Under the pieces are notes generated by a model, which searched no databases, had not been told where the DNA came from, and was given only the letters and a program-made list of their open reading frames with translations. This document shows positions 45,721 to 51,062 of a stretch of 64,000 nt of DNA, piece by piece. The translations under genes were made by a program, and so were the position numbers. The DNA lies in contig JANVYQ010000004.1 of NCBI GenBank assembly GCA_030059675.1, positions 32,001 to 96,000 of the forward strand, written 5' to 3'. Source of the DNA: Candidatus Pelearchaeum maunauluense (lineage in GTDB: Archaea; Thermoproteota; Nitrososphaeria_A; Caldarchaeales; Caldarchaeaceae). The number at the start of each line of letters is the position of its first letter. Position 1 is the stretch's first letter.

Positions 45721-45819
45721 GGCTTTTCACCCTAGAGCACTACCTCGTCCTCAGTCTTATTTTTGCCTTACGTCATGGTATGGGGAGGGTTCTTAAACCC
45801 CCAAAGCATGTTTGGCCTC

Positions 45820-46002
45820 TTGGGCATGGGGGGCAGCAAGATTAGGCGCTGTAAGGTGTGCGGGGCTTATACGCTTAAGGAGCGCTGCCCCTCCTGCGGC
45901 GGCGAAACGGCAAGCCCACACCCACCCCCATTCTCCCTAGATGACAAATATCTGGATATACTCGTGCGCGTGAGACAGAAGAGGCGTGCTGAGGGTATAT
46001 AA
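45820..46002 (+). CDS. nop10: H/ACA RNP protein Nop10
   Basis: IRRCKVCGAYTLKERCPSCGGETASPHPPPFSLDDKY. Confidence 0.93.
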   Translation: MGMGGSKIRRCKVCGAYTLKERCPSCGGETASPHPPPFSLDDKYLDILVRVRQKRRAEGI

Positions 46003-46088: not shown

Positions 46089-46844
46089 TTGGAGACCCGT
46101 ATAATCACGTTTGATGGCTCCGAGACTAAGGCAAGTATAGTGATAGAAGCATCTCCCACACCAGGGGCTGCTGGGCTTATCGCTGGAAACTTCCTCATAG
46201 AGAGCCTTGAGGCTAAGAAGGTTGCTGAGGTTGTCTCGCCGTTTTTCCCGCAGATAAGCCTGATAAACGACCAGGGGATAGCATCACGGCCAAAGATTGA
46301 GATATACATAGCTGACGTGCAGGGAAGGAAGATTCTCCTGATGTCTAGGAATTTTCCAGTAGAGAGTAATGAGGGCAGCCATATCCTTGCGCGTAAGCTC
46401 TACGAGTTTCTGGCTGAGCGTGGCGTGGTTGAGTATTATGTTTTTGCCAGCGGCAGGATAACGGGAGAGCGCGGTGTGTATGTCTCATCAACAAGTATTG
46501 ATGAGGTAAAGTCATTCCTCGCGGCGGGGGCTAGGCTCTCCCCCTCACTGGAAAGCCTGCCTGTGGATAAGCTCACAGGGTTCTTGATGATGTTCTTCGC
46601 CCGCGAGAAGAAGCGAGTATTCCTACTGCTCTCAGACACGCCCTCATACTTCCCAGACCCGCTCGCGGCCCGCCGCCTGCTAGAGGTGTTCTCACGAGGC
46701 ACGCAGCTCCAGCTAGACTTCTCAAAGCTTGATGCTGAGATTGAGAAGCAGCGCCGCGTTATGGAGGAGGTGGAGCAGGGCGCCCTAGGGCTTGCTGGCG
46801 AGCGGGAGGAGAAATCATCCAGAGAGCCGTTCTACATCGGCTAG
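46089..46844 (+). CDS. Proteasome assembly chaperone PAC2 family protein
   Basis: GLIAGNFLIESL, FFPQ, YFPDPLAA, C-terminal FYIG; the nop10-adjacent position is typical. Confidence 0.8.
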   Translation: METRIITFDGSETKASIVIEASPTPGAAGLIAGNFLIESLEAKKVAEVVSPFFPQISLINDQGIASRPKIEIYIADVQGRKILLMSRNFPVESNEGSHILARKLYEFLAERGVVEYYVFASGRITGERGVYVSSTSIDEVKSFLAAGARLSPSLESLPVDKLTGFLMMFFAREKKRVFLLLSDTPSYFPDPLAARRLLEVFSRGTQLQLDFSKLDAEIEKQRRVMEEVEQGALGLAGEREEKSSREPFYIG

Positions 46845-48988
46845 CTCTCGGGATACAGCACCTCGTAGATATAGACGTAGGCAAAAGCCCTGTATGGTGG
46901 GCTTGAAGCGTAAACCAGCCTAAAATGTTCTAGCTGCGGCTCCTCGTAGATGAGCTGCGTCGTAGTACCTATCTGTCGTGGCTTGTATGGTATTAGCTGG
47001 CCTAGTAGCGTCTCTTGCCAGAACTTGTCGGTTGGGTTGAAGTTCTGGTCCATGTATTCCGACTCTTCAAACTGGTATCCTACCTGCTTAGCTATCCTGA
47101 GCATCCATATCCACTTCCCATCCTCACCGAAACCTAGGAACGTGCCAGAGACCTGACCTCCCTGGATTGAGAACAGGCCCGTAACGAATATTACCACGTG
47201 GGTGACGCCGTGCCTCCTGAAAACATCAACCGCTACCTTCTCATCCGACATGAATGCATAGGCTACCTCTCCAATCTGCGTGCTGTTGAGGGTGGCGTTG
47301 TCAATTAATGTAGTCTTGTTACCCAGAACCGTTATCCAGTAGCCATAGTCCCACCAGGAAGCTACTACGGCGTCGCTGGGTAGGTTGTCGCGCATCCAGG
47401 CCAGCGCTTTAGGCCAAGCGTCCTCAAACCCCCTTATGGGTATACTACTGCTCAGCAGTGTTACGGGCTGGTATCCCTGGTCAACGGGTGATATGCTGGT
47501 TCCGCGTAGGTTTATTCCACCGTAAACCCCTGGGAGGATGCTGTAGGAGATGAAGAATAGTATGAGTAGGGGCGTGAGTATAGCGTAGGATTTAGGTATT
47601 GCTATGTGGCGTTTTCTGGTGCTTGCTGAGGCGCTCAATAGCTGGCCTAGTGAGCTGAAGAGTGATGTGAAGGCCTGGCCAGCCGCCAACGCTACTGCTG
47701 GCGCCGCTATCAGAACTAGCCTAACCATAGAGGCTGAGAAGTAGATGCTCAATATTGTGAAGAGGGCTATGAAGAGGCTTGTCTGGTCTGCTCTCCGCAG
47801 CATGACGTACAGCCCGTAGGGGACGAAGAGGAGGAGCACTCCGAAGTCGGAGAAGAGGACGGCCCAGGTTGATAGCTGGTTCTCGGCAACCGACTCAATA
47901 ATGGGCAGTTCGTCTCTAAGCCATGGCAGGAGGACGGATAGGAACTTGAGGGATGGCACTCTAATAGCGTTAGCCGCTATGGCGACGCCCATTATGATGA
48001 TACCCGCTATTATCACCAAGTAGGGTAGTGTCCGCCTAATCGTTGTAGAGCCTATGTGTGAAGCGATTTCAAAAACAATCAAGAGCCCTATTGAGAGTAT
48101 GCCTGTGAATAGCGTAAATTCAAACAGGTATCTAACCCCTAGTTTGGGAACCATTATAGCTATGAGCGCGTAGGTGGCGTAAGTTATTGCTGTAGCTGTT
48201 AGGAGCTGTGTCCTATACCTTCCTATGAGCGCGAGGAAGACTGTGAAGAGCGGTATGAATGCTAGTGGAAATTTATGCGCTCCCCAGCTTGCGGCCATGA
48301 AGCCTAGTAGAAGGCCAGAAAGTATGGAGTAAGCCACGACGCCTTTCTCACTCCTCCCCTCCTTTATGGCGAGCAGGAAGAGGAGATAACCCCCAAGCAT
48401 CAGGGGTATGCTCAAGCTCTCATCATCAAACCACCCTAGGTGGGTTCTCCCTATGTGGGCAGCGCTTATAGCCAAGAATAATGCTGCCGCAAGGCCTGTG
48501 GGGCCGCCCCCAAGCTCTCGCCCCAAGAAGTAGATTGCAATAACCGCCACGACGCCATAAACTACTGGGAGCATAGCCGCAAGCTCGAGAGGGTCTACAC
48601 GAACTCCCATCATAGCTAGGATGTTGTAGATGAATGCCATGGAGAAGGGAAGTCCTGGGAAGGCTGTTATCCCAACGTCGCGGCCGTATGGGTACCATGA
48701 CGAGTAGTCGTGCCAGTTGAAGAACTCTATGAAGCCTCCCCATCCCCTATCTATGATGAACCGCGCCTCCTTAAACTGCATCCAGGGGTCAAACTCTGAG
48801 AGCGCGACACCCCATCTTATCGGGAGTACGCGGAGTATGAATGCTATAGCGAGTATTAGGGCTAGTATGGAGAGCTCTATAACGTATTGCCTCCCTCCAA
48901 ACCGTCTATCTATGCTTCTCAAGACTTCAAAGAATGTGCCTACGCCTCGCAAAGCCTCCACCGCAGCGCGTCTCTCCCCGCTCATCAC
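46841..48988 (-). CDS. aglB: Oligosaccharyltransferase catalytic subunit AglB/STT3
   Basis: EFDPW, SWYPYGR, FDDE, SVAENQ, WWDYG, DNATLN, DGKWIWMLRIA (DK motif). Confidence 0.96.
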   Translation of the reverse strand: MMSGERRAAVEALRGVGTFFEVLRSIDRRFGGRQYVIELSILALILAIAFILRVLPIRWGVALSEFDPWMQFKEARFIIDRGWGGFIEFFNWHDYSSWYPYGRDVGITAFPGLPFSMAFIYNILAMMGVRVDPLELAAMLPVVYGVVAVIAIYFLGRELGGGPTGLAAALFLAISAAHIGRTHLGWFDDESLSIPLMLGGYLLFLLAIKEGRSEKGVVAYSILSGLLLGFMAASWGAHKFPLAFIPLFTVFLALIGRYRTQLLTATAITYATYALIAIMVPKLGVRYLFEFTLFTGILSIGLLIVFEIASHIGSTTIRRTLPYLVIIAGIIIMGVAIAANAIRVPSLKFLSVLLPWLRDELPIIESVAENQLSTWAVLFSDFGVLLLFVPYGLYVMLRRADQTSLFIALFTILSIYFSASMVRLVLIAAPAVALAAGQAFTSLFSSLGQLLSASASTRKRHIAIPKSYAILTPLLILFFISYSILPGVYGGINLRGTSISPVDQGYQPVTLLSSSIPIRGFEDAWPKALAWMRDNLPSDAVVASWWDYGYWITVLGNKTTLIDNATLNSTQIGEVAYAFMSDEKVAVDVFRRHGVTHVVIFVTGLFSIQGGQVSGTFLGFGEDGKWIWMLRIAKQVGYQFEESEYMDQNFNPTDKFWQETLLGQLIPYKPRQIGTTTQLIYEEPQLEHFRLVYASSPPYRAFAYVYIYEVLYPES

Positions 48989-49083
48989 GTGAATTTAAGC
49001 CAATCGCCAAGTCTGTCAGACCTGAGAATGACGTGTTGGGAGATGTGGTTAAATACGCGCTACTGGATTGGCTTCATGCCAGC

Positions 49084-49506
49084 ATGTCGCATAGGAAGGA
49101 GCGAGGAAAGACCGCAGAACCCCTCTTTACACGGATTGTGGATTCTCTTACAAACCTATCACAATCAAAGACTGTCCGTAACATAATCATAATCCTAGTT
49201 ATCGTGGCGATAATCGCTATAGCAAGCGGCCTTCCATATAACATGACAGTGGAGAGCATCGGTGTGGCGTTTATAGGCGGAAGCATAAGGGTATTCATCC
49301 CAAGCCTTCGCGCCCAGACGTATGCAGAACTGCTGGTAACCAGCACGTTCTACATATTCGGCTTCATAGGAATACTTCTCTATATACTGGCTTCGCAGCA
49401 GGTTGGCAGCCCTAGGAGCAATAGGTATATGATAATCTTCAGCGTCCTGCTCTTGTTGTTTGCTTTTCTGGGGCTTATAGGTGGTTTCATATCCAAGCTG
49501 GGCTAG
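49084..49506 (+). CDS. OSTC/DC2 (OST3/OST6 TM-module)-like oligosaccharyltransferase accessory subunit
   Basis: About 140 aa with 3 TM; SGLPYNM...FIPSLRAQTYAE...GFIGILL...FISK parallels the GGIIYD...QYIME...GGLGFI...K pattern of DC2. Divergent from aglB. Confidence 0.72.
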   Translation: MSHRKERGKTAEPLFTRIVDSLTNLSQSKTVRNIIIILVIVAIIAIASGLPYNMTVESIGVAFIGGSIRVFIPSLRAQTYAELLVTSTFYIFGFIGILLYILASQQVGSPRSNRYMIIFSVLLLLFAFLGLIGGFISKLG

Positions 49507-50710: not shown

Positions 50711-50805
50711 AGCCGGGGAGGGGATTTGCACCCCTGTAGAGTGGGTCTGCAGCCCACCGCCTAGCTGCTCGGCCGTCGGGGGCTCCTCATGGAGCCAACC
50801 CCGGC
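50711..50805 (-). tRNA. tRNA-Cys(GCA) with a 23-nt BHB intron at position 8/9 (50775-50797)
   Basis: GCCGGGG-T|intron|GGCCGAG...GTGGG-CTGCAGA-CCCAC, AGGGG-TGCAAAT-CCCCT, CCCCGGC-T (U73 discriminator). Confidence 0.9.
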
Positions 50806-51062
50806 CTTGCCCCGGCTCTACTTTTGCTATGTGTTGCTTGTTTTTGAGGTTTTATCACCACTGGGCGTGTAGTGGTTGCCATTACGTAGCCCAGCCAGCC
50901 TATGATTAGGAAGATGAAGAGGGTTATTAGGAGTACGGGTAGGCGTACAGCGAGCTCGCTGTCAAGGCCTGGTATTAGGTCAAAGAACCATAAAGAGTAT
51001 ATCACAGCTCCCATGGCTGCGAAGAGCATCAACGCGGCGCCCACTAGCTTAACGCCTGACAC
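50787..51062 (-). CDS. Small two-TM membrane protein
   Basis: Two hydrophobic helices (..VGAALMLF.., LPVLLITLFIFLIIGWLGYVMATT). The reading frame runs into the tRNA-Cys locus. Confidence 0.7.
   Translation of the reverse strand: MSGVKLVGAALMLFAAMGAVIYSLWFFDLIPGLDSELAVRLPVLLITLFIFLIIGWLGYVMATTTRPVVIKPQKQATHSKSRAGARPGLAP

Follow-up and report, generated by a model that had tools for sequence, protein, structure and literature searches.

A DC2-like membrane protein encoded head to head with aglB in Caldarchaeales: a candidate partner of an archaeal oligosaccharyltransferase

RESULTS

A 64,000-nucleotide stretch of the genome of Candidatus Pelearchaeum maunauluense (assembly GCA_030059675.1, contig JANVYQ010000004.1, positions 32,001 to 96,000; hereafter the window, whose numbering is used unless another locus is named) carries a gene for a 140-residue membrane protein next to aglB, the sole STT3 match found in this genome (1.79 Mb, 94% complete). 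Profile, fold and motif evidence identifies the small protein as a genuine, distant OSTC/DC2-like homologue of the OST3/6 membrane module of oligosaccharyltransferase (OST). We infer that it is probably a non-catalytic, AglB-bound partner in a two-subunit OST and may affect glycosylation in that role. The host, an archaeon of hot-spring type, belongs to the Caldarchaeales (TACK) and lies outside the Asgard archaea, as a first-pass annotation made from the sequence had held.

Organization of the Divergent Gene Pair

The gene pair and the spacer between the two start codons are arranged as follows.

46841-48988, minus strand: aglB, 715 amino acids, GTG start with ATG as the next codon
48989-49083: divergent spacer of 95 bp, with A/T-rich TATA-like words read from the sequence
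49084-49506, plus strand: OSTC/DC2-like gene, 140 amino acids, ATG start at 49084

The genes are head to head and divergent, and the spacer grows to 98 bp if aglB starts at its ATG. Both the coordinates and the three predicted transmembrane (TM) helices agree with the first-pass description of a divergent 140-residue, three-TM protein 95 bp from aglB. One TATA-like word, TTAAATA at 49049-49055, lies 29-35 nt 5' of the ATG of the OSTC/DC2-like gene, and a second, AATTTAA, is at 48992-48998. The length of the spacer differs among relatives. Given the 95-bp spacer, the two genes may share a bidirectional promoter.

A longer mechanical open reading frame (ORF) of the small gene begins at an ATG 150 nt upstream (48934), encodes 190 amino acids and overlaps the first codons of aglB. 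ATG 49084 was taken as the real start because relatives support the short form; in a 93%-identical relative the open frame has just 146 codons. The protein was matched in 53 of the 61 genomes of the order, its own genome counted, and in all 14 genera, with lengths of 116-143 amino acids among the relatives. Because of this conservation the ORF is regarded as a genuine gene and not a chance reading frame.

Homology to OSTC/DC2 and the OST3/6 Membrane Module

Searched alone, the small protein matched the membrane part of the Pfam family OST3_OST6 (PF04756) at E 8.1e-4 and 19.3 bits over profile positions 179-288 of 294. A phmmer search of 1.84 billion representative sequences returned 17 matches, all close kin except two long spurious ones. 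Alignment A1 was assembled from the query, 22 of 29 ORFs extracted from the order and 12 of the 17 phmmer matches (35 rows); near-duplicates, two truncated ORFs, three fragments and the two long spurious matches were excluded. PF04756 matched 28 of the 35 members (best E 7.9e-7), and other Pfam families matched 1-4 of them. The best match of the A1 profile in the PDB was MagT1, with E 0.052.

Alignment A3 extended the family to the whole phylum with 59 proteins from 60 further genera, one locus each, and 16 rows of A1 (75 rows in total); one of the 60 proteins was omitted, as its start codon was not found. In this set PF04756 matched 59 of 75 members (best E 1.7e-11), which bears out the assignment to OST3_OST6 even though the lone protein stays below the Pfam cut-off. 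Against the PDB, the A3 profile matched human OSTC/DC2 with E 5.1e-12 and 49 bits (query 21-130 to OSTC 28-143 of 149), canine OSTC with 6.6e-11 and MagT1 residues 216-326 with 4e-10 and 42.9 bits. The next match was unrelated and had E 0.3.

The motif residues of the small protein are G49-L-P-Y52-N53, Q78-T-Y-A-E82, G93-F-I-G96 and K138. Thus the G..Y(D/N), Q...E, G..G and K pattern reported in the first-pass annotation is present, and the conserved positions across the 75 relatives belong to it (G49 100%, Q78 93%, E82 93%, G96 99%, K138 88%). Within A1 the invariant positions are G49, E82, G96, Y100, L123, G130 and K138, and Q78 is nearly invariant. In the profile alignment the conserved Q78...E82 was placed on QYIME of OSTC and QFVAE of MagT1. 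The G..Y, Q...E, G..G and C-terminal K positions are common to the small protein and OSTC.

Predicted Fold, Topology, and Subgroup

An AlphaFold2 model of the small protein, built with A1, had a mean predicted local distance difference test score (pLDDT) of 81 and a predicted template modelling score (pTM) of 0.63. It contains the following elements.

residues 14-26: amphipathic helix
residues 29-47: TM1
residues 62-69: beta-hairpin in the outside loop between TM1 and TM2
residues 80-104: TM2
residues 110-139: TM3

In a Foldseek search of the PDB, every one of the ten best matches was a chain from an OST structure, namely DC2, Ost3, Ost6 or MagT1 (E 8.6e-3 to 2.4), and the matches of rank 11 onward were unrelated chains. 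VIA-align gave those ten chains Z scores of 9.9-13.2, compared with 7.9 for the best unrelated chain. The root mean square deviation (rmsd) was 1.4-3.2 Å over 103-115 residues for nine of them and 6.6 Å over 130 residues for the tenth (9n9j_J). The model superposed on DC2 (8PN9_H) with Z 13.2 and 1.9 Å over 108 residues, on MagT1 (6S7T_H) with Z 12.8 and 1.4 Å over 103 residues, and on Ost3 213-336 with Z 11.8. Its residues 30-140 span OSTC 28-144, MagT1 215-326 and Ost3 213-336, so that the small protein corresponds to DC2 over its full length or, in Ost3/6, to the three final helices. Together with the profile match to human OSTC and the shared motif, the fold upholds the first-pass identification of the protein as OSTC/DC2-like.

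It is most improbable that a hydrophobic small protein resembles OST3/6 by chance, since, although the single-sequence Pfam match is subthreshold and small TM proteins often yield weak spurious matches, the family profile matches OSTC end to end at E 5.1e-12, 59 of 75 members match PF04756, the ten best fold matches all belong to a single family and stand clear of the next ones, and the polar residues Q78 and E82 are conserved and line up with their counterparts.

Basic residues prevail in the N-terminal segment, with 6 Lys/Arg and 3 Asp/Glu among the first 30 residues. Read from this charge distribution, the protein fits an orientation with a cytoplasmic N-terminus and an outside C-terminus, as in DC2. 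The C-terminal tail of DC2 is lumenal (PMC5674889).

The ∼28 residues before TM1 hold neither a thioredoxin domain nor the first TM helix of Ost3. Because the thioredoxin domain is lacking, the protein is classed as DC2-like and not Ost3/6-like. Its length of 140 amino acids, three TM helices, lack of a thioredoxin domain, end-to-end OSTC match and charge-derived orientation together make up the architecture of OSTC/DC2. Placement in the Ost3/Ost6/MagT1/TUSC3 oxidoreductase subgroup was rejected, as both the thioredoxin domain and the first TM helix are lacking and the PF04756 match is restricted to positions 179-288. A split Ost3/6, with thioredoxin domain and TM module encoded separately, was also considered and rejected; the sole thioredoxin-like PF04756 signal in the genome is on another contig and covers profile positions 45-104.

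Mammalian OSTC (DC2), the STT3A-specific subunit of OST-A (PDB 6S7O H, 8PN9 H, 8B6L J, 6FTG 3), is a close known counterpart in architecture: ∼140-150 amino acids, three TM helices, no thioredoxin domain, with Z 12.1-13.2 and rmsd 1.9 Å to the model. Identity in the structural alignments is only 18-19%, however, and unlike OSTC the small protein belongs to a prokaryotic host without an endoplasmic reticulum. With yeast Ost3/Ost6 and mammalian MagT1/TUSC3 (PDB 8AGC H, 7OCI C, 6S7T H) it shares the last three of four TM helices, whereas it lacks their lumenal thioredoxin domain (CxxC) and first helix.

AglB and Other OST Subunits

The AglB sequence matched Pfam STT3 at 7.8e-37 and STT3-PglB_core at 1.8e-6, and its nearest relatives are named STT3 domain-containing protein from Candidatus Caldarchaeum, Caldarchaeales, Aigarchaeota or Nitrososphaerota. 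It has the N-terminal STT3 membrane domain and the WWDYG catalytic motif (545-549), as well as DNATLNST, a double sequon, at 563-570. The EFDP and SVAE motifs noted earlier were located at 65-68 and 366-369. The DK motif is generally worded DxxKxxxM/I. The literal DxxKxxWMxRI of the first-pass annotation is not in the protein: the region reads EDGKWIWMLRI (622-632), with K625 and M629 present and the acidic residue shifted (E622-D623-G-K625), and no D..K occurs anywhere in the 715 residues. In the alignment consensus, AglB relatives mostly have D-E-G-K at this site.

TACK and Asgard AglB have WWDYG, the DK motif and the DNXTZNXS/T motif in common with eukaryotic Stt3 (PMC11407970). The eukaryote-like motifs of this AglB are therefore expected for its lineage and do not set it apart. 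The crystallised Archaeoglobus enzyme is an example of a single-subunit archaeal AglB. The AglB of the window shares with that type the STT3 N-terminal domain and WWDYG; it differs in being of the TACK/Asgard STT3-like type (DNATLNST, SVAE; PMC11407970) and in having a candidate partner gene.

Homologues of ribophorin I, Wbp1 and Ost2, which had been proposed as a further line of search, gave no match of weight in the source genome. Ribophorin I/Ost1 (PF04597) had no match there, OST48/Wbp1 (PF03345) had only a match of E 0.07 with an in-frame stop, and DAD/Ost2, Ost5 and Ost4 (PF02109, PF05251, PF10215) had none at E ≤ 1, very short subunits being hard to detect. In this the source genome is unlike the complex of OSTC, where ribophorin I, OST48, DAD, Ost4 and Ost5 accompany it. 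Nothing supports a complex of more than two subunits (Swp1 and KCP2 were not searched for).

Distribution of the Family

A profile search of 301 genomes sampled from its own phylum (TACK) detected the OSTC/DC2-like family in 145 of them, which cover 71 of 128 genera; every match was a short open frame. AglB is more widespread (270 of the 301 genomes). Families without or nearly without the small gene keep AglB, namely f13 (AglB 20/20, small gene 0/20) and f5 (43/44 and 1/44). Among the rows listed, compared by eye, the AglBs of such families scored ∼1e-11 to 1e-31 against the STT3 profile, compared with ∼1e-32 to 1e-58 for families that have the small gene, a difference that would favour a partner role for the small protein.

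Of 81 Asgard genomes sampled, 76 were also matched by the TACK-built profile (E 1e-15 to 1e-31); the open frames code for 126-219 amino acids, apart from one of 336. In two Asgard genomes PF04756 matched the TM part only. What the literature calls Asgard “Ost3/Ost6” therefore seems to be the same short family. Ost1 and Ost3 were reported earlier in Asgard archaea (PMC10307638), Promethearchaeum carries an Ost3/Ost6 gene (PMC11284389), and one published sentence places OST1 and OST3/6 in TACK and Asgard archaea (PMC11417166). A DC2-like protein is thus no rarity outside Asgard archaea, given its presence in nearly half of the TACK genomes and the earlier statement on TACK OST3/6.

Annotation of the family is sparse. 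The Caldarchaeales relatives are annotated as hypothetical protein, and some Methanomethylicia proteins (116-123 amino acids) carry a precomputed PF04756 label, yet are hypothetical at NCBI. In the ESM-Atlas, the nearest clusters are archaeal hypothetical proteins with PF04756 on 16-26% of members. No description of an aglB/OSTC-like gene pair in Caldarchaeales was found in the literature listings and passages surveyed.

A tree of the family (95 archaeal rows, 142 columns) placed the 16 Caldarchaeales rows in one clade (ultrafast bootstrap/SH-aLRT 99/95) on an unresolved backbone. A quick first tree of the same 95 rows grouped 19 of the 20 Asgard rows; in the careful tree the Asgard label needs two changes. 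Nothing in the tree suggests a recent transfer of the small gene. Unlike the Asgard “Ost3/Ost6,” the Caldarchaeales proteins form their own, more divergent clade, with the small protein below the Pfam cut-off. The small gene is a divergent, hitherto unannotated member of a family known from Asgard and, per the one published sentence, TACK archaea. What is mainly gained is accordingly a wider range for a known family, which now takes in an order whose copies are still annotated as hypothetical proteins.

Linkage to aglB and the RadB/CarS Control

Linkage between aglB and the small gene recurs. In 29 other genomes of the order the two genes are head to head in 11, and among 20 wider loci that were re-fetched aglB lies ∼1.9 kb off and divergent in 7, all of a Caldarchaeum-like genus. 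In total, 18 of the 31 other genomes examined in the order have aglB divergent from the small gene, either head to head with it or within ∼2 kb. Three further adjacent pairs, by coordinates, belong to another genus of the order (G024, G032, G040). In 60 genera outside the order, aglB is within 3.5 kb of the small gene in 13 and directly adjacent and divergent in 6; the chance expectation is ∼0.5% (7-kb span, 1.5-Mb genome). Starting from AglB, 80 named loci were inspected, the best 80 of 569 confirmed relatives (599 pattern-matching stretches) and therefore biased to close AglBs. In 19 of them the small gene lies no more than 3.5 kb away; 18 of these have it upstream and on the other strand, and in 4 the two genes are direct neighbours.

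In the Caldarchaeum-like genus, a gene for a ∼600-residue secreted, threonine-rich, C-terminally anchored protein sits between aglB and the small gene. It may encode a heavily glycosylated surface protein. This gene and the other neighbours are listed below.

locus L125, 1627-3462, minus strand: threonine-rich protein gene, lying 5' of the small gene in the same orientation; also in L205, L206, L208-L211 and L215
49503-50147, minus strand: radB-type ATPase gene (NCBIfam recomb_radB, 1.4e-29)
46089-46844, plus strand: PAC2-family proteasome-assembly-chaperone-like gene, convergent with aglB, its stop overlapping the aglB 3' end by 4 bp
45763-46002, plus strand: Nop10 gene, beside aglB

The radB-type gene is convergent with the OSTC/DC2-like gene, and their 3' ends share 4 bp.

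A number of observations weigh against a partnership with AglB. Characterised archaeal AglBs act as single subunits (PMC10859629). On its own, the small protein stays under the PF04756 gathering score (19.3 versus 27 bits), and a phmmer search with the single sequence gave no matches in the PDB. Of the 20 re-fetched loci of the order, 13 have no aglB within ∼5 kb, some of them on short contigs. Among 20 Asgard loci, a single one has aglB within 4 kb and the other 19 do not, unlike the adjoining genes of the window. The best-kept neighbour of the small gene is the RadB-type ATPase gene (42 of 60 TACK genera, 11 of 20 Asgard loci), which is convergent with it in 52 of those 53 loci. In 39 loci the two are separated by 400-1000 bp, and each such gap holds one gene on the strand of radB; it was the CDP-archaeol synthase gene carS in three of three scanned (Pfam 5e-46, 5.6e-44, 5.1e-49). 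In the source genome carS is on another contig, and radB abuts the small gene. The comparison genes ASCH, PAC2, Nop10 and MetRS were near the small gene in 0 of 60 TACK and 0 of 20 Asgard loci. Finally, what separates the small gene from aglB in Bathyarchaeia is a set of unrelated housekeeping genes (GcvT-like, topoisomerase-like, RadA).

The RadB gene is probably not functionally linked to the small gene. Because RadB and CarS are conserved in place and the intervening Bathyarchaeia genes are unrelated, the neighbourhood seems to be partly inherited order. The region looks like an old block, with aglB pointing away from the small gene on one side and carS followed by radB pointing toward it on the other, that has decayed to differing degrees. 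Adjacency to aglB is therefore no proof of common function, and gene order is suggestive, weak evidence. After the RadB/CarS control, synteny alone was dropped as proof of coupling to AglB. The synteny proposed as a check in the first-pass annotation thus stood in part: linkage to aglB recurs within and beyond the order, but that to RadB is more conserved. Gene order around the OSTC/DC2-like gene needs careful reading.

DISCUSSION

In eukaryotes, the only established role of the OST3/6-DC2 module is that of an STT3-bound subunit (PMC10859629, PMC5674889), and the STT3-Ost3/DC2 pair belongs to OST subcomplex II (PMC10859629). By comparison, the small protein would have no catalytic part and would sit on the membrane domain of AglB as its partner, and the two proteins would form a two-subunit OST, the counterpart of the STT3-Ost3/DC2 core of subcomplex II. 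It might stabilise AglB, or shape access of the lipid-linked glycan or the substrate. This is the reading that we consider probable, next to the homology, fold, topology class, conservation and recurrent aglB linkage of the small protein, which are stated above as observed. The first-pass interpretation holds in that a DC2-like homologue is encoded head to head with an STT3-like AglB in a non-Asgard archaeon, but novelty or special status of the protein family is not supported, as it is widespread in TACK and is shared with Asgard archaea.

An alternative, proposed in the first-pass annotation, is that the small protein is a translocon adaptor that links AglB to SecYEG in the way that DC2 joins STT3A to Sec61, and so couples glycosylation to translocation and makes it co-translational. 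DC2 mediates the OST-A/SEC61 contact (PMC10859629, PMC5674889), the best sequence and fold matches of the family are DC2 chains rather than Ost3/6, and its architecture of three TM helices without a thioredoxin domain is that of DC2. However, OSTC and MagT1 are nearly equal as matches, with 49 versus 42.9 bits and practically tied Z scores (13.2 versus 12.8). Because these scores are close, the family is not specifically DC2-type in sequence. In addition, secY is not in the neighbourhood examined, and ribophorin I, which eukaryotic ribosome contact needs (PMC10859629), was not found in the genome (KCP2 was not searched for). Drawn as it is from the analogy with DC2, an adaptor role is unlikely.

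The gene-order data bear on a different possibility, namely that this OST3/6-type membrane fold works independently of AglB, perhaps in the handling of membrane lipids or cations, and that its adjacency to aglB is inherited order. MagT1 and TUSC3 were first named magnesium transporters, and the neighbours most often kept beside the small gene are radB and carS, the latter coding for a lipid enzyme, rather than aglB, which in Asgard archaea is seldom close to it. Yet the radB and carS genes point toward the small gene and are therefore not co-transcribed with it, aglB recurs as its immediate divergent neighbour in several distant families, and the solved structures that match the small protein are all OST complexes. 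We regard a role apart from AglB as quite unlikely.

If the small protein does sit on AglB, a multi-subunit OST would not be limited to eukaryotes and Asgard archaea and would be a common TACK-Asgard trait, and the STT3-Ost3/DC2 core would predate eukaryogenesis. Tentatively, one could go further and picture AglB with a DC2-like three-helix partner as the ancestral two-subunit OST of the TACK-Asgard common ancestor. The thioredoxin-less form might then be the original one, Ost3/6 having later gained a helix and the thioredoxin domain while DC2 kept the old form; the partner would accompany those AglBs that are closer to STT3, and perhaps it already anchors the enzyme at SecYEG. We hold this extended scenario to be possible, if doubtful. 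Thermophilic Caldarchaeales proteins encoded by neighbouring genes would be convenient material for co-expressing a minimal OST and studying its structure.

Beyond radB, a gene at 50787-51062 on the minus strand encodes a 91-residue two-helix membrane protein. Pfam DPM2, the regulatory subunit of dolichol-phosphate-mannose synthase, matched 11 of 17 aligned members (best E 5.2e-5, all below the cut-off). Of 41 relatives, 40 have the gene conserved, frequently as two copies, and no linkage of it to aglB was seen in other genera.

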